Shown here in pieces: positions 8,474 to 54,774 of a DNA stretch of 64,000 bases. Origin of the DNA: an uncultured Prevotellaceae bacterium (GTDB taxonomy: Bacteria; Bacteroidota; Bacteroidia; Bacteroidales; Bacteroidaceae); NCBI GenBank assembly GCA_902789415.1, contig CADAOD010000021.1, positions 5,030-69,029 of the forward strand. The letters are read 5' to 3'. Made by a program: the position numbers and the translations under genes. Below the pieces are notes generated by a model, which was not told the DNA's origin, did no database searches, and was given only the letters and a program-made list of their open reading frames with translations. Every line of letters starts with the position of its first letter. Position 1 is the first letter of the stretch.

Positions 8474-9342
8474 TGGAAACCTCTGAGATCATCAAGAAAG
8501 TCCGTAAGATCGAGATCAAGACCCGCGGCTTGAGCTCAAACATCTTTGCAGGTCAGTACCACTCTGCCTTTAAGGGTAGGGGTATGGCCTTTAGCGAGGT
8601 GCGCGAGTATCAGTTCGGTGATGATGTGCGAGATATCGACTGGAATGTGACTGCTCGTTTCCATCGTCCATATGTAAAGGTGTTTGAAGAGGAGCGCGAG
8701 CTGACGGTGATGCTGTTGATCGACGTCAGCGGATCGCTTGATTTTGGCACCCAGAAGCAGATGAAGCGCGATATGGTGACCGAGATTGCTGCCACCCTTG
8801 CCTTCAGTGCTATTCAGAACAACGATAAGATTGGTGTGATATTCTTCTCGGATAAGATCGAGAAGTACATCCCGCCCAAGAAAGGCCGCAAGCATATCCT
8901 TTACATTATCCGTGAGATGCTCGACTTTAAGCCCGAGTCAACACGTACGGATATCAAGCAGGCCATTGAGTTCTTGTCGAGTGTCCAGAAACGTCGTACT
9001 ACAGCCTTTATCCTGAGCGACTTCTATGTGCGTAGCGATTTCCAGCAGTCGTTGCAGATTGCCAATCGCAAGCACGATGTGGTAGCCATCCAGGTGTACG
9101 ACCAGCGTGCACGCGAGTTGCCCGATGTGGGACTGATGAAGGTTGTTGATGCCGAAACTGGCTACGAGCAGTATGTGGATACAAGTTCCAAAAAGCTGCG
9201 CCAGGCTTACCAGAAATACTGGTTAACCCGCCAGGCACAGTTGCAGGATACTTTTAATAAGAGCAATGTAGATAACGTGAGCATAGCCACTAATCAGGAC
9301 TTTGTTAAATCGTTGCTGTTGCTATTTAAACAACGTAGTTAA
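8473..9342 (+). CDS. DUF58 (VWA-like) MoxR-associated protein
   Basis: GRGMAFSEVREYQFGDDVRDIDWNVTAR, KVFEEEREL. Confidence 0.92.
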   Translation: METSEIIKKVRKIEIKTRGLSSNIFAGQYHSAFKGRGMAFSEVREYQFGDDVRDIDWNVTARFHRPYVKVFEEERELTVMLLIDVSGSLDFGTQKQMKRDMVTEIAATLAFSAIQNNDKIGVIFFSDKIEKYIPPKKGRKHILYIIREMLDFKPESTRTDIKQAIEFLSSVQKRRTTAFILSDFYVRSDFQQSLQIANRKHDVVAIQVYDQRARELPDVGLMKVVDAETGYEQYVDTSSKKLRQAYQKYWLTRQAQLQDTFNKSNVDNVSIATNQDFVKSLLLLFKQRS

Positions 9343-20736: not shown

Positions 20737-20808
20737 GGTCGATTCATCTAATGGTTAGGATACAAGATTCTCAATCTTGGCATAGGGGTTCGATTCCCCT
20801 ATCGACTA
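20737..20808 (+). tRNA. tRNA-Glu(CTC), copy 1
   Basis: Anticodon stem-loop CAAGA-TT-CTC-AA-TCTTG, GTTCGATTC T-arm. Confidence 0.93.
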
Positions 20809-20899
20809 CAACATCTTTTACATTTTGGTCGATTGAGTTTTCAACTCTATCTCCCTCGCGACTCGGCAATTCAAGTAAACTTGATTGCGCTCGCTGCTC

Positions 20900-20971
20900 G
20901 GTCGATTCATCTAATGGTTAGGATACAAGATTCTCAATCTTGGCATAGGGGTTCGATTCCCCTATCGACTA
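20900..20971 (+). tRNA. tRNA-Glu(CTC), copy 2; integration target
   Basis: Identical to copy 1 over 72 nt; 3' end duplicated at 54504-54518. Confidence 0.93.
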
Positions 20972-20972
20972 C
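20958..20972 (+). repeat. attL core
   Basis: TCCCCTATCGACTAC, same as 54504-54518. Confidence 0.9.
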
Positions 20973-21226: not shown

Positions 21227-21656
21227 CCTGGTCTTTTCAGCAAGAAATCGACAAAATTACACTGTAATAGTGCATTTTCTTTAAAATTTTGCACTGCTTT
21301 AGTGCATTTAAGGATTACATTGTCATGGATGACATAGAATATGGCTCCGGCAGCATCATTACTCCTCCGGGCTTTCGGTTTGACCTACTGATTGTTTCAG
21401 AGGAACGCAGTTCCTCCCGTAGTTCTTTTCTTCCTTTGTCGTTTTCTTCCAAAAAGATTTTCATACATTGTCGCTTTAATACAATTTCTTCTTTCTACGT
21501 GTTCTTAATTAACAATAGAAGAAAGGGGGAAAGAAGAGTACTGAGTACCCTTCTCTTCTAAACCCCCTGCAGTAAGAGTTAGAGTACTCTTCTTGCGCGC
21601 GCGCACGAGGTTAATCGCCCTGTAAATCGGTGTTACAGCATATTTTTTGCTTCGAG

Positions 21657-21782
21657 TTTTCACTACTCGGCGCGGCATTTTCACTACTCGGCGCGGCATT
21701 TTCACTACTCGGCGCGGTGAGTTTTCACTACTCGGCGCGGCATTTTCACTACTCGGCGCGGCATTTTCACTATTCGGCGCGG
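21657..21782. repeat. Six iterons (19-bp core TTTTCACTACTCGGCGCGG, 21-bp period); candidate replication origin
   Basis: Units at 21657, 21678, 21699, 21722, 21743, 21764; no spacers; Rep-like gene nearby. Confidence 0.8.
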
Positions 21783-21826
21783 TAGTTAAATAATGTTTAT
21801 TTCTTGGATGTTAGAAATAATCTTTG

Positions 21827-22105
21827 TATCTTTGCCATCGCTTAACAGATGATAGTTCCTTCTATCCGGTAAGAGCAACAACCGTAACTGCTCAGCCTTC
21901 GGCTCGGGCTTTTTTGATGGCCAAGAGCCAGCGAGTATTGACTCGTAACATTGTGGGTAAATTGGTATAGTCAACATATAACGGCTGCCATCTCGTAGAT
22001 CAATCTGCTCTCCGGAGAAGACTACATCTGTTAAGCAACGGGATGTGCAGCCGTTTCCTTGTCACCGTACCAGCGGTACTGGTAAGCTTAACAGATGTAG
22101 CAAAA
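21827..22105 (+). promoter_or_regulatory. Promoter plus structured leader with an a / a' / a complementary triad
   Basis: -7 box TATCTTTG near 21827; GCTTAACAGATG 21840; CTACATCTGTTAAGC 22022; GCTTAACAGATGTAG 22086; hairpin plus T6 at 21890-21915. Confidence 0.65.
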
Positions 22106-22636
22106 ATGGAACAAAGAAAGAGCGTAGAGGATTTGAAAGATTTAGAGTCTTTCGAGAAAAAAGTCCTACAAGATGTTGAAAAACAAAAAAGAGAAGAAGC
22201 GAAGAATTACCTGAGACTTCTCACAAAAGGTGCAGAAAGTATATGGGCATGGTGGCACCCGTCATGTCTGACCAGCGAATTTCTGACGATACTCCCCCAA
22301 AAAGATTTCGCGGACGGAGGCACCATGTTCCCGTTTGGGATCGTGTGGCCTTCTGGTATGGCTATAAATTTGGTTAAGTTATCCCAGTTCATTGATTATT
22401 GCAAAAAAAGATTTGGTTCTGATGCCTCGATAGCCAACGGTTTCATTTGGAGAGAAAATGGCAGGATGTGCTACGTGTGGTATTTAAATGCTGGCATGCT
22501 TAACGGGTTGTCTGAACTTATCAAGAAAGCAGCAAAGATATATTCCCTTCCTATTACTCAAGAGTCAAATCAATGCCATAGTCTATCAGAGAAATCGAAA
22601 AGATGCAAAATAGTGGATTTAGATAAGGTAGTATAA
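22106..22636 (+). CDS. Hypothetical protein (start moved to ATG 22106), candidate element regulator
   Basis: ORF preceded by A-rich AAAAATG directly after the antisense target; no family recognised. Confidence 0.7.
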   Translation: MEQRKSVEDLKDLESFEKKVLQDVEKQKREEAKNYLRLLTKGAESIWAWWHPSCLTSEFLTILPQKDFADGGTMFPFGIVWPSGMAINLVKLSQFIDYCKKRFGSDASIANGFIWRENGRMCYVWYLNAGMLNGLSELIKKAAKIYSLPITQESNQCHSLSEKSKRCKIVDLDKVV

Positions 22637-22695
22637 AATGCAATTTTTCAGCAAGCAGAGCCCTGAAATGCCCATTTTACGGGCTGGAAAAATCG

Positions 22696-22762
22696 TAAAT
22701 GTGTTAAATCAAGACAAAGTTTTGAATTTTTATGGCGGTCAAAAATGTATTTCCGATCTTTG
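22696..22762 (+). promoter_or_regulatory. Conserved 20-bp box plus -7 promoter element (copy 1)
   Basis: TAAATGTGTTAAATCAAGAC 22696-22715; GATCTTTG at 22755. Confidence 0.75.
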
Positions 22763-28012: not shown

Positions 28013-28044
28013 CCAGTTCAAGGCATTTATTCAGAAAAAAATCG

Positions 28045-28111
28045 TAAATGTGTTAAATCAAGAGGAACTTTCTCTTGAATTTGTACACTTTGGGGAATAA
28101 ATGTATCTTTG
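28045..28111 (+). promoter_or_regulatory. Conserved box plus -7 promoter element (copy 2)
   Basis: TAAATGTGTTAAATCAAGA 28045-28063; TATCTTTG at 28104. Confidence 0.75.
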
Positions 28112-30218: not shown

Positions 30219-30299
30219 ATTGATGCATAAAAATATGGAATAAGCTTTTTCTCATTCTGCTTTTCTCTTGATTAAGACAATTTAAGACGATGAAATTTC

Positions 30300-30366
30300 T
30301 AAATGTGTTAAATCAAGACAAAGTTTTGAATATTTTATCGCGTGTGTTATATAAAAGATAACTTTG
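30300..30366 (+). promoter_or_regulatory. Conserved box plus -7 promoter element (copy 3)
   Basis: TAAATGTGTTAAATCAAGAC 30300-30319; TAACTTTG at 30359. Confidence 0.75.
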
Positions 30367-41297: not shown

Positions 41298-41455
41298 ACT
41301 CTGTGCTTTTTGGACAGGACGTCGGCGAATCTGCAAGGGGTGCTGCTCGATGGGAGGAACCCTTTCCAATTCTTTCCAATTCTTGCAAAATTGGAAAGAA
41401 TTATATATATTGGGCGCAGTCCGCTATTACCGATTCCAGAGAGAATAAAGACTTG

Positions 41456-41546
41456 TTAACAATTATCAGCCGCTGGCTGGGAATTATAAAAATATGTAAA
41501 AGAACTGTTGAAAAGTTGTTTTACATTAACTTTTTCGTAACTTTGC
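41456..41546 (+). promoter_or_regulatory. 91-bp promoter cassette, copy 1
   Basis: 85/91 identical to 42681-42771; ends in a TAnnTTTG box. Confidence 0.8.
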
Positions 41547-41604
41547 ACTCAAAGAACGTGGACTTGATGCTCCACAACCATTGTATATTCAAATATTTGA
41601 TAAA

Positions 41605-42285
41605 ATGAAACATGTACTTTTATTATTAGTGTTTTTTGCCATTCCTGCTATCAGTATTGCCCAGGGAGCAGATGATTTCTTCACCAGTCCTGAATTTAAG
41701 GCAGACATTCAAGAGTACAACAAGACAACGAAAGGCAGTAACAAGAAGCGTTGCCAGATGTTGATGAAGTTAGAAAATCATATGAACGATGAAGGTGAAA
41801 TCCAATATCAGTACGTGTTTCATGCCAAGGACACCCTGAATAGAGCACAGCTCATGGAGATTGTCAAGCGATGGGCCAAGACGAATTATAAGAATCTTGA
41901 GAAATCGACTATCAGCGAGACGGACAGTACCGCTGAATATACAGGCTATTTTATGAATGTCGGTCAGGTTATGGGTGCTTTTAAGGCCGTCATCATCAAT
42001 GCAATTTCGTATGTCCTCATCGAAGCCAAGGCCGACAGGATTAGAGTGACGGCTACCGTCAGACACTACTCCCTGGCACAGGGAAGTGTTTCCGGTGCCA
42101 AGACTGCCCTAACCTTACCAAAAGATGTTTATCCATATGCTGATTCATCTAATCAAAGTACCTATGCTCAGGCATATATTAACTGTCACTATAATCTTAT
42201 AACAACAGTTGCCGGTATTCTGATGTATCTTAACAAGAATTACCCTTCTTTCCCTGCTAAGGAAAAGAAGAATGATGATTGGTGA
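41605..42285 (+). CDS. Secreted DUF4468-like protein (start moved to ATG 41605)
   Basis: Signal peptide; YQYVF..LNRAQLMEIVKRWA..IEAKADRIRVT. Confidence 0.6.
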   Translation: MKHVLLLLVFFAIPAISIAQGADDFFTSPEFKADIQEYNKTTKGSNKKRCQMLMKLENHMNDEGEIQYQYVFHAKDTLNRAQLMEIVKRWAKTNYKNLEKSTISETDSTAEYTGYFMNVGQVMGAFKAVIINAISYVLIEAKADRIRVTATVRHYSLAQGSVSGAKTALTLPKDVYPYADSSNQSTYAQAYINCHYNLITTVAGILMYLNKNYPSFPAKEKKNDDW

Positions 42286-42360: not shown

Positions 42361-42680
42361 CTTTGAAATATAACAGGTTATCTTGCCTATTTGGGTAAGA
42401 TTATCTTACCCATGTACCCTGTATCAGATCAGCCTACTAAAATATAAGGTGCTCCTTGTATTTTACATCAATTTTGATGTATTTGAAGGTGTAAAGATAT
42501 TTTATTTCGCCCGATTTTAGGGGGATATAACTACCTCACCTGCAGTCTGTTTCGCGTTCTACGGGCTTTATATGAGGTCATTTTCTCCGTCGACATCGGT
42601 AAAATGCCCGTTTCGGCAAAATACTTGACAATATTCAGTTGGCGTATCTTTTACCGATGCAGGAAAGGAATTTGTACCTA

Positions 42681-42771
42681 TTAACAGTTATCAGCCACTG
42701 GCTGGGAATTATAAAAATATGTAAAAGAACTGTTGAAAAGATGTTTTGCATTATCTTTTTCGTACCTTTGC
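42681..42771 (+). promoter_or_regulatory. 91-bp promoter cassette, copy 2
   Basis: Direct repeat of 41456-41546; ends in TACCTTTG. Confidence 0.8.
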
Positions 42772-42793
42772 TGTCAGATAATAACTCTCAGCA

Positions 42794-48511: not shown

Positions 48512-48660
48512 CAAAGATACGTAGTAGCTTTGTGGTTGCCGAAATTCGGCAAACATTCGTCTTGATTTAACACATTTAAGACGGCGAAAATTCTAAATGA
48601 GTTAAATCAAGACAAAGTATGTGTTTTTTTAGGGTATCTGAAAGATTTTTTCGACCTTCG
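48512..48660. promoter_or_regulatory. Divergent promoters with an inverted pair of the conserved box (copies 4 and 5)
   Basis: Reverse box 48559-48578 with TATCTTTG (minus) at 48519-48512; forward box 48594-48613 with GACCTTCG at 48653. Confidence 0.75.
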
Positions 48661-52913: not shown

Positions 52914-54263
52914 CTATTGCTTGTCAAACAATAACATTGCATCCTCTTTAGCCTTGTCAGCTATTTCAATGTATGGTTTCATGGCCGAATAATCGCTGTG
53001 TCCTGTCCATTTCATCACTATCTGAGGGGCGATGCCAAGCATCAGAGCGTTACAGATGAAGGTTCTACGTCCTGCATGAGTGGACATCAGCTGATACTTA
53101 GCATAGACTTCGTCTACACGTTGGCTGCCACGATAATAAGTGACAGGAATAGCCTCGTTAAAGCCAACAATCTCAGCCATCTCCTTCAGATAGTCATTCA
53201 TTCGCTGGTTGCTGATAACAGGAAGGACCTTATCATACGGAAAATTATCCTTTCGGTATTTGTTCAAGATAGCTTTGGCATACTTGTTCAATTCGATCTT
53301 CAAGGAGTCACCGGTTTTTACGGTCGTTATTTGAATATAGCCAGGGAAAAGATTGCTTCGCTTTAGGTTTTCGACGTCAGAATAACGTAAAGAAGTGAAA
53401 CAGCAGAAGCAGAACACATCCCTAACACGTTCAAGAGTGGACTTTTCAAGCCCCACACGCTTCTCGTATTCATATCCGTGGACATCGACAAGGGTCAGCT
53501 TCGTTCCGACGTCAGGAAAGCTAAATTCATAGAGCTTCATCAGTTCGTCCCAATCCAGGAAGACGATAGGTTTCTTAGTCTTCTGAAGTTTTGGCCTAAA
53601 ATTGGCCTTTATGGACGTGTAACCTTTATTTTCTGCCCACCGGATGAAGTATCGCAGACGGCTTGTGTATTTTTCAATCGTAGAATTACGTAGAAACTTT
53701 ACCTCACGAAGAAAATCTACAAAGTACGTAGTTCCATCTTCGTTAAAATAATCGATGGAGGTTACATGTTTATAGTCAAAGAAATCAGTCATGTGCTTCT
53801 GGAACGACTTCATACTTTTGCTCGTTGCCAAACGCCAGCTATTTTTGTCTTTCTGTTCTTCCAAGAAATCTGACAACCGTTTTCTGATGTCATCTGGTAG
53901 TTCTTCTTTCTCTTCAGTTGTTTCTACCTTCTGCTTTTTGAAGTTCTCGTTATAGATGCTTTTCAGGTCACCCACAGTCTGACCATTTCTCCGTAGTTCG
54001 TCCTCATATTCACTAAAAAAGCTATCTATACGTTTCAACTTACTGTTTAACTCGCGGGCAGTAAGAGAACCTATCATCACTGGTTTACCAGCGTATGAAA
54101 GTAGAATTCTCTGAGTGTCCTGATTCCAGTACTCAGGTTTTATAGAGAAACCTGCAGTCGTGGTGAGGCGCTTGCCTTGAATACAGATAGCACATCTCAC
54201 TGTAACGTCGCCATCTCCACGCTTCTTCTCTCTGGTTTTATCTAAGAAAAATCTGACTGACAT
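52914..54263 (-). CDS. Tyrosine integrase
   Basis: Arm-binding N-terminus; SLRYSD, TVKT, HAGRRTF, WTGHS..MKPY catalytic R-K-H-R-H-Y. Confidence 0.95.
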   Translation of the reverse strand: MSVRFFLDKTREKKRGDGDVTVRCAICIQGKRLTTTAGFSIKPEYWNQDTQRILLSYAGKPVMIGSLTARELNSKLKRIDSFFSEYEDELRRNGQTVGDLKSIYNENFKKQKVETTEEKEELPDDIRKRLSDFLEEQKDKNSWRLATSKSMKSFQKHMTDFFDYKHVTSIDYFNEDGTTYFVDFLREVKFLRNSTIEKYTSRLRYFIRWAENKGYTSIKANFRPKLQKTKKPIVFLDWDELMKLYEFSFPDVGTKLTLVDVHGYEYEKRVGLEKSTLERVRDVFCFCCFTSLRYSDVENLKRSNLFPGYIQITTVKTGDSLKIELNKYAKAILNKYRKDNFPYDKVLPVISNQRMNDYLKEMAEIVGFNEAIPVTYYRGSQRVDEVYAKYQLMSTHAGRRTFICNALMLGIAPQIVMKWTGHSDYSAMKPYIEIADKAKEDAMLLFDKQ

Positions 54264-54503: not shown

Positions 54504-54518
54504 TCCCCTATCGACTAC
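54504..54518 (+). repeat. attR core
   Basis: tRNA-Glu 3' end TCCCCTATCGACTAC followed by a terminator-like hairpin at 54524-54554. Confidence 0.9.
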
Positions 54519-54774
54519 AACTCAAGAGCTTCCGTTTTCACGGGAGTTTTTTTTATTCCCTAAAACTAAGTTTTGTATGATGTTTCCCGAAGTACATAAC
54601 AGCGCACAGCTCACCGAGCTAATTAGCAGCATAGGTTTCACACCTTATTTATATAGGTGAAATGGTGTAGAAATAACAAATTGTGGCAGAAATCGCAAAA
54701 TTTCTGCCATTTTATTTGTTTATTTCACAAAAAAGCTATACTTTTGCAGTCGTAAACAATAAAACGAAAGAATT

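Follow-up and report, generated by a model that had tools for sequence, protein, structure and literature searches.

In phage P4, expression of the replication operon is prevented by a small antisense RNA, CI, which is processed from the operon's own leader and pairs with two target sites, seqA and seqC; structurally similar systems are found in P1, P7 and N15 (PMC4825925, PMC3632133). RNAs of this C4/CI type have so far been described from Proteobacteria and phages (Rfam C4; PMC2864571). We have analysed a leader of ~270 nt lying at the left end of an integrative element in a 64,000-nucleotide stretch of contig CADAOD010000021.1 (hereafter the window; coordinates refer to it) from an uncultured Prevotellaceae bacterium (assembly GCA_902789415.1). 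An earlier note, made by inspection of these letters, had read in this leader a P1-C4/P4-CI-like antisense triad, a reading that is now supported by 48 site variants, by compensatory pair changes and by the layout of the P4 control. We regard the cassette as a genuine regulator and as a Bacteroidota counterpart of P1/P4 antisense-RNA immunity that had not been described before. It is widespread in rumen and gut Prevotella/Bacteroidales elements, and a full-text literature search returned no description of such a system in Bacteroidota. It probably acts as an RNA-based immunity or incompatibility cassette, working like seqA-CI-seqC of P4 and a1-C4-a2 of P1.

The triad consists of an upstream target site (a1), a recognition sequence (a') within a compact RNA domain named here the core, and a downstream target site (a2), all on the forward strand (Table 1). 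The positions that the earlier note gave for a1, a', the second a, the closing arms and a hairpin followed by T6 (T1) proved exact to the base, and a2 is, as it had claimed, a 15/15 complement of a' placed 5 nt before ATG 22106, the intervening letters being CAAAA. The triad also precedes the first element gene as proposed, since orf176 comes first when the ~33.6-kb element is read from its left end. The 12-mer, with at most one mismatch, occurs four times in the 64-kb window where 0.40 occurrences are expected, three of these copies being exact and within 260 bp of one another. None of 100 shuffles reaches four copies, and the leader folds better than shuffled sequences (z = −3.4). These values and, most tellingly, the concerted conservation of the three sites exclude a chance origin of the triad.

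Phage P4 (X51522), examined by an Rfam scan and by reading of its sequence, served as a positive control. Rfam places isrK at 8692–8615 and C4 (74.9 bits) at 8507–8420, 107 nt downstream; isrK is the short seqA-bearing RNA ending in a hairpin and U6, and C4 is the CI RNA. SeqA reads GUGAGAA..UUCACAGG, in the CI RNA CCUGUGAA occupies a hairpin loop and UUCUCAC an unpaired 3′ junction, and seqC repeats GUGAGAA..UUCACAGG so as to overlap the AGGAGG before the first ATG. The Prevotella cassette shows the same order on one strand: a promoter, a short upstream-target RNA with a hairpin and U-run (the terminator of the P4 seqA RNA corresponding to T1), ~60–100 nt, the antisense RNA and the downstream target. 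In both systems the antisense RNA measures ~75–87 nt, is closed by a stem of 16–17 bp and recognizes its targets through an unpaired strand just 5′ of the 3′ arm of that stem, the downstream target covers the translation-initiation region of the first open reading frame (ORF) of a replication operon, and the cassette sits on an integrative element with its own replicon. Several hallmarks of the C4/CI class are found here, namely a same-strand antisense RNA in the leader of the operon that it precedes, targets on both sides of it, and one of these, a2, on the translation-initiation region of the first ORF.

A further hallmark, matched changes in RNA and targets, is provided by the relatives. 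Contigs encoding orf176 homologs show a little-changed scaffold with three site versions (GCTTAACAGATG, GCGATAAGATG and GCTTGAAAGATG), in each of which a1, a' and a2 are altered together. A gapped pattern of the closing stem retrieved 7 loci from genome assemblies (Prevotella/Bacteroidales metagenome-assembled genomes, MAGs), 43 from metagenomes (mostly rumen, some human gut) and 9 from IMG/VR, and a second search of IMG/VR with the a1-side motif of hairpin H2 alone yielded 32 more. All 25 loci of the latter set that have enough flank contain a core and a perfect a2 (23 with an a1 match of at least 12 nt, two with an interrupted a1), so that ascertainment is independent of the definition of the core. 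The tally comprises 107 cassettes or cores from rumen and gut Prevotella/Bacteroidales metagenomes, with 68 distinct leaders and 48 distinct a2 sites. In 67 of the 68 leaders a2 pairs with a' without mismatch for 13 nt or more (the exception, L052, has a single G·U pair). The complementary stretch of a1 is usually shorter; it is unbroken for 11 nt or more in 64 leaders, three of the others having one mismatch and one a 9-nt match. Matches of a' to leaders of other types average 6 nt. The earlier note had named conservation of the triad as one of two points on which its proposal would stand or fall; the triad is kept, and each of the 48 variants has matching a1, a' and a2.

Fourteen diverse leaders were aligned with MAFFT and their pairs counted. 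Pairing reaches 98.1% in the a1:a' duplex and 99.5% in a':a2, with 11 of 15 pairs changed on both sides in either case; none of 500 shuffles reaches the observed value for either duplex, and slid-register controls show 30–60% pairing. The sites are exact copies of one another, direct or inverted, show hardly any G·U intermediates and lie ~55 bp to the right of six iterons. These features would also be seen if the sites acted as DNA, either as operators for an element-specific DNA-binding protein or as recombination or replication sites with incidental RNA folds, and a constraint at the DNA level would leave duplexes that look alike. Such an origin is nevertheless very improbable. The partners of a1 in hairpin H1 and of a' in helix P2 covary too, the closing stem P1 contains G·U variants, the covariance model of the core is strongly asymmetric between strands, and a2 always ends 3–6 nt ahead of the start codon, regardless of which gene comes first. 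Moreover, a-site type and iteron type assort independently among related loci, and no DNA-binding protein that varies together with the sites is apparent. Selection on RNA is favoured by the covarying helices (H1, P2 and P1), by the difference between the strands and by the constant spacing of a2 and the ATG.

Table 1. Features of the leader and of the adjoining iteron region (window coordinates; MFE, minimum free energy)
Feature	Position	Strand	Description
Inverted repeat	21531–42 / 21583–94		12 bp; 5′ of iterons
(CG)n palindrome	21592–21609		5′ of iterons
Iterons	21654–21785		six, 21–23 bp, TTTTCACTACTCGGCGCGGCA
Leader promoter	21803–21834	+	−33-like cTTG 21803–06; Bacteroidetes −7 box TAtcTTTG 21827–34; read from sequence
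a1	21840–21851 (to 21855 with extension)	+	upstream target site, GCTTAACAGATG
H1	21851–21866	+	hairpin GATAG / CTATC, loop TTCCTT; MFE folds; masks a1 3′ end
H2	21873–21893	+	hairpin GAGCA / TGCTC; MFE folds
T1	21890–21909, T6 21910–21915	+	intrinsic-terminator-like hairpin GCTCAGCC-TTC-GGCT(C)GGGC; sequence and terminator scan
Spacer hairpin	21919–29	+	GGC-CAAGA-GCC; between T1 and core
Spacer hairpin	21932–45	+	CGAGT-ATTG-ACTCG; between T1 and core
Core domain	21981–22054	+	MFE −32.6 kcal/mol
Closing arms	21980; 22047	+	AACGGCTGC; GCAGCCGTT
P1	21981–96 with 22038–54		closing stem, 16 bp: 8 bp, bulged U22046, 8 bp
P2	21997–22000 with 22026–29
P3	22004–22021		terminal hairpin
a'	22022–22036	+	recognition sequence CTACATCTGTTAAGC; spans internal loop, P2 3′ arm and seed bulge
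Seed	22030–37		hypervariable, unpaired 8-nt bulge GUUAAGCA
U-rich tail	22055–22062	+	TTTCCTTG; directly 3′ of closing stem; UUUCYYUGU in relatives; kept in alignments A1 and A2
H4	22064–22083	+	hairpin ACCGTACC-AGC-GGTACTGGT; between core and a2
a2	22086–22100	+	downstream target site GCTTAACAGATGTAG; −20 to −6 relative to start codon
orf176	22106–22636	+	first gene inside left end of element; 176 aa

The architecture of the core is common to all 39 distinct variants folded and to 24 of the 25 independently found. These are per-sequence folds, used instead of RNAalifold, which on the MAFFT alignment gave P1 alone with the interior misaligned. Across the variants P2 has 4–5 bp and the 3′-side bulge 7–8 nt, the latter being exactly the hypervariable part of a'. 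The 5′ arm of P2 covaries with the middle of a' (AGAU/AUCU, GAAC/GUUC, AAAAC/GUUUU, AACAU/AUGUU and others), and the inner part of P1 changes in the independently found set from CAUC/GAUG to CUUC/GAAG as well as to CUUC/GGAG, which has a G·U pair. In a1, the 5′ half (GCUUAAC) is unpaired and complementary to the unpaired bulge of the core (GUUAAGC). Complementary seeds left unpaired in this way are commonly used where rapid seed pairing is to be followed by strand invasion. The covariance model built here for the core (CM R1) finds exactly one copy in the window, with 103.5 bits on the forward strand versus 29 bits on the reverse strand. A putative second cassette in L102 (7474–7548) was rejected: it is a plain perfect hairpin of ~30 bp (CACGGCTGCCGTTTCGCAAACC ... 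GGTTTGCGAAACGGCAGCCGTG) that shares the core-stem ends CGGCTGCC/GGCAGCCG, lacks the core interior and matches CM R1 weakly (28 bits). The U-rich tail, which always follows the closing stem directly, may represent the 3′ end of the core RNA or a second attenuator. Relatives keep a hairpin at the position of H4 with other sequences (CCGGCGGAACCGG, CCAGTGCGGTTCGCTGG and CCACGAGGTACGTGG).

The part of the leader 5′ of the core begins with the promoter that the earlier note had listed, now recognizable as a Bacteroidetes-type −7 box with a −33-like cTTG situated 20 nt 5′ of it, the distance expected for a −33 element. The motif TAtcTTTG, presumably a promoter element as known from Bacteroides promoters, recurs as TAnnTTTG 4–6 nt 5′ of a1 in all related leaders, and the predicted transcription start (~21839–41) coincides with the first bases of a1. 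The 5′ half of a1 is unpaired and its 3′ end lies inside H1; the site can be extended past a bulged A to UAG (21853–55). In a second class of relatives (class 2) the H1 arms are AGUGG/CCACU and similar, 100% paired with three of five pairs covarying, and H2 is GAGCG or GGGCG / CGCTC with pairing kept. The 3′ arm of H2 overlaps the 5′ arm of T1, and H2 is a possible antiterminator. A hairpin with U5–8 is present at the position of T1 in nearly all leaders; termination at T1, if it occurs, would leave an RNA of ~75 nt that starts with a1. This arrangement, in which a1 marks the predicted start and is followed within ~75 nt by two hairpins and by T1 with U6, is conserved and recalls isrK; the isrK model itself has no match.

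In relatives, the two spacer hairpins 5′ of the core covary as well (GCCGUCACGGC; CGGGU..ACCCG), which indicates that the spacer functions as RNA; read-through of T1 is then the most likely way for transcription to reach the core. A separate promoter for the core, for which the −7-box-like TAAATTGG at 21958–65 was considered, is disfavoured because this motif adjoins hairpins that covary as RNA. In class-2 leaders only ~25 nt lie between the U-run and the core, too few to accommodate a promoter, and read-through is again the preferred route. The whole ~270-nt leader behaves as one structured transcript.

Downstream of a2, gene callers start the first ORF at ATG 22043 (197 aa, protein cluster P0001). 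This codon is part of the invariant GGGAUGUG inside the RNA core, and the 21 N-terminal codons read from it are therefore almost certainly untranslated; orf176 homologs of 172–176 aa begin 3′ of a2, and the true start is almost certainly ATG 22106. Because the first start is called inside the RNA, existing annotations of such elements carry a systematic error here. Thirty-four homologs of orf176 (61–94% identity) were found, all metagenomic, and a protein search of genome contigs with orf176 gave no related loci. The protein has no Pfam, PHROG or NCBIfam match, and its AlphaFold (AF2) model is poor (predicted local distance difference test score, pLDDT, of 52). In other cassettes the same leader stands 5′ of unrelated first genes, which belong to the orf176 family, to a group of 73–115-aa membrane proteins or to others. 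The class-2 first gene (L028, L030, L036, L039, L042, L046, L057 and others) follows directly after a2 and encodes a protein of 73–115 aa (MQQTIQ...) that has a hydrophobic helix at its C terminus and matches neither Pfam nor PHROG families. Relatives of the leader often lie 5′ of helix-turn-helix (HTH)-Rep-ParA or Rep-DnaB-ParA modules. The presence of unrelated first genes behind the same leader suggests that what is gated is entry into a replication or activation programme rather than one particular protein.

These features lead to the following model, in which the ends of the transcripts and the events that they undergo are predicted from sequence and analogy. Transcription would start at a1 from the Bacteroidetes promoter, and many transcripts would probably end at T1 to give the ~75-nt RNA with a1 at its 5′ end. 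The read-through RNA would carry the two spacer hairpins, the very stable core, H4, a2 and orf176, and the core would be processed from it as a stable, trans-acting species of ~75 nt. Pairing would begin at the seed exposed in the 8-nt bulge and spread through P2 into a 15-bp duplex with a2. Functional Shine–Dalgarno (SD) interactions are absent from Bacteroidetes, in which mRNA structure tunes initiation (PMC3155529, PMC6847099). Since Bacteroidota do not use SD pairing and need an unstructured initiation region, an a':a2 duplex at −20 to −6 should block translation of orf176, and the genes that follow (for the DUF3853 protein, Rep, DnaB and ParA) would also be shut, directly or by polarity. 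The core would act in cis and, on any transcript with the same site, in trans, so that a resident element would silence both itself and an incoming element of the same type; the hypervariable seed would then define many orthogonal specificity groups, and seed variants may correspond to immunity groups.

Action in trans is suggested by two observations: no reason confined to cis action was found for the diversity of orthogonal seeds on a constant scaffold, and cassettes sharing a genome or contig differ in specificity. The Prevotella MAG MGYG-HGUT-04462 (human gut) contains three cassettes on as many contigs (L024, L081 and L083), near-identical in scaffold and first gene but each with its own seed; a single base distinguishes L081 from L083 (AAGC versus AACC), and the change is made at a1, a' and a2 alike. 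Two cassettes (L074 and L085) with the specificities GGAATTAAGAACGATG and GCTACAAAGAACGATG share the 44-kb contig UViG_3300013414_001147, classed as viral in IMG/VR. Two class-2 loci show no phage functions in PHROGs and Pfam searches, though IMG/VR lists their contigs as viral.

A leader switch confined to cis, in which a' pairs either with a2 (OFF) or with a1 (leaving a2 free, ON), would need neither a diffusible RNA nor immunity. Indeed, the MFE fold of the full-length leader already forms the 15-bp a':a2 helix, so that an RNA acting in trans is not strictly required, and a1, being transcribed first, could capture a'. No RNA species has been seen directly: such leaders are present in RNA libraries, as metatranscriptome contigs (Logan) show, and a close relative is covered continuously across T1 through leader and orf176 (21855–22591), but these are assembled contigs, possibly containing DNA, that reveal neither a processed species nor ends, and the adapter junction at 21855 in one of them is too thin to interpret. 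We nonetheless judge a cis-only switch unlikely. It does not need dozens of orthogonal sequences on a conserved scaffold; co-resident cassettes always differ, once by a single seed base at three sites, as avoidance of cross-talk predicts; T1, lying between a1 and a', would often split them onto different molecules; and the layout copies that of P4, whose action in trans is established (PMC4825925).

In the immunity model, a1 is the component whose role is least secure. As a second target it most likely couples the abundance of the core to termination or read-through at T1, giving a P4-like autoregulatory loop; alternatively, by analogy with IsrK, the a1 RNA might titrate the core. Another reading makes the a1 RNA the main trans regulator, an anti-antisense or activator like that described for Salmonella IsrK; it would bind a' in the long transcript or in the core, free a2 and switch the first gene on, and the cassette would be an activation or threshold device and not a repressor. 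In the predicted terminated RNA of ~75 nt, a1 stands at the 5′ end and offers an unpaired seed, a design typical of trans-acting small RNAs (sRNAs), and IsrK, the enterobacterial counterpart, acts in trans to switch on translation of the longer, read-through form of its own transcript (PMC4825925). However, P4 seqA is needed to establish repression and not to relieve it (PMC3632133), and complementarity to a' is usually longer in a2 than in a1. We consider activation by a1 quite improbable; it would alter the sign of the a1 arm only, leaving the nature of the triad untouched, and is compatible with the immunity model.

Several observations weigh against that model, among them the scarcity of G·U pairs in the a-site duplexes, the a':a2 helix in the cis fold and the nature of the RNA evidence, all described above. 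The outer 7 bp of P1 are invariant and thus uninformative either way, and the co-residence of three cassettes in one genome depends on MAG binning. In folds spanning a1 to T1 of 48 leaders, blocking a1 in silico did not consistently favour either T1 or H2. No homology to the known systems could be detected, CM R1 giving no match to P4 at E≤1. The isrK model (RF01394) has no match at E≤10 on 21400–22400, and six related loci give neither a C4 match at E≤1 nor an isrK match.

The Rfam C4 search suggested by the earlier note (RF01695, gathering threshold 45 bits) returned no match in the window, nor any at E≤10 on 21400–22400; the gathering scan of the whole window listed three tRNAs only, and permissive scans of the leader and six related loci gave noise (mir families; BTnc005 with 26.8 bits against a threshold of 174.8). 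Membership of the Rfam C4 or isrK families is accordingly rejected, the covariance models having no match, and the cassette is to be called C4-like rather than a member of the family.

The fold itself differs from that of C4. The C4 RNA has a closing stem around two hairpins and bipartite recognition through a hairpin loop and the junction, whereas in the variants folded a single arm (P2–P3) is enclosed; a closing stem (16 bp here) and an unpaired 3′ strand (8 nt here) are present as in C4. The Prevotella cassette uses a single contiguous site of 12–19 nt, and pairing must open P2. The downstream target of P4 covers the SD sequence, whereas here, with no SD sequence, the A-rich −20 to −6 region is covered. 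The hosts are Enterobacteria for P4 and Bacteroidota for the Prevotella cassette, and the Prevotella element, unlike P4, carries a relaxase and MobC and no recognizable phage genes.

The P1/P7 C4 system (immI: a1 b1 - c4 - a2 b2 - icd - ant), the details of which are established (Citron and Schuster 1990, as cited in PMC8201110), is likewise a sense-encoded antisense RNA with sites upstream and downstream, of which the downstream one blocks translation of a small first ORF, and its heteroimmune relatives also show matched changes of RNA and target. Many class-2 cassettes likewise precede a small first ORF, of 73 aa, and the small first ORFs of this class recall icd (P1) and kil (P4) behind C4/CI. 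P1 differs in having two site pairs (a and b), in contrast to the one site of the Prevotella cassettes with its at least 48 variants. To our knowledge, only two C4 specificities (P1 and P7) are classically known. The 5′ end of P1 C4 is made by RNase P.

In the Salmonella Gifsy-1 IsrK/STnc1160 pair, a promoter-proximal sRNA ends at an intrinsic terminator and the read-through isoform contains a complementary C4-like RNA (PMC4825925). The two-isoform logic is that proposed here for a1/T1 and the core, with the difference that IsrK activates its own long isoform and binds Hfq. The antisense RNAs that control plasmid copy number in pT181, pIP501 and ColIb-P9/R1 types are also small and structured, expose their seeds, act on the leader of a rep operon by attenuation or translational block and determine incompatibility, and the Prevotella leader resembles these systems in being flanked by iterons and Rep genes. 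Copy-control RNAs are countertranscripts of the opposite strand, however, and their complementarity is automatic, whereas the Prevotella regulator lies on the strand of its targets; complementarity at three sites must therefore be kept by selection, which is the hallmark of C4/CI. As far as we know, Bacteroidota lack Hfq.

The cassette extends the C4/CI-type principle to Bacteroidota, on elements that are not recognizable as phages. We put forward tentatively, as a possibility with some doubt attached, that a three-RNA circuit of a 5′-seed a1 RNA, the core and the mRNA site a2, with a 7–8-nt seed as barcode, sets up dozens of mutually orthogonal exclusion or incompatibility groups among the competing integrative elements, and perhaps phages, that inhabit Prevotella of the rumen and gut. 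Such a circuit would achieve RNA-only discrimination of self from non-self on SD-less mRNAs, would have evolved independently of enterobacterial C4/CI, and would acquire new specificities by single-base changes fixed at three sites. The ~50 variants with identical scaffolds and different seeds offer a test bed for the evolution of antisense specificity, bear on how elements of the same family avoid or exploit each other in rumen and gut and on translational block of SD-less mRNAs, and are potentially orthogonal RNA regulators for engineering Prevotella and Bacteroides.

As for the element itself, tRNA-Glu(CTC) is present twice (20737–20972), in 100% identical copies 163 bp apart, a duplication that may be the scar of an earlier integration. 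The last 15–18 nt at the 3′ end of the tRNA (20795–20812 and 20958–20972) recur at 54504–54521, just beyond a tyrosine integrase gene on the minus strand (52914–54263). This recurrence beside the integrase places the leader at the left end of a ~33.6-kb integrative element inserted at tRNA-Glu, which encodes a relaxase and MobC and is integrative mobilizable. Its further cargo includes a DUF3853 protein, a putative initiator (506 aa), DnaB, ParA and an MmeI-type restriction-modification enzyme; no phage functions were recognized in PHROGs and Pfam searches. The iteron region (21531–21785) is probably the replication origin of the element. Relatives have quite different iterons and different initiators, either of 506–517 aa without Pfam match or Rep3 proteins of 367–375 aa.

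A box of ~45–70 bp with the core TAAATGTGTTAAATCAAGACAAAGTTT is present in four copies (22662–22733, 28025–28071, 30266–30337 and 48560–48631), each 5′ of a gene block and the first between the orf176 stop and the DUF3853 gene; these boxes may be element-specific promoters or operators, and the earlier note suggested the product of the gated gene as their possible activator. Just 5′ of the MmeI-type restriction-modification gene, an ORF (41581–42285) is flanked by a 106-nt direct repeat (41451–41556 and 42676–42781) whose copies are 89% identical.

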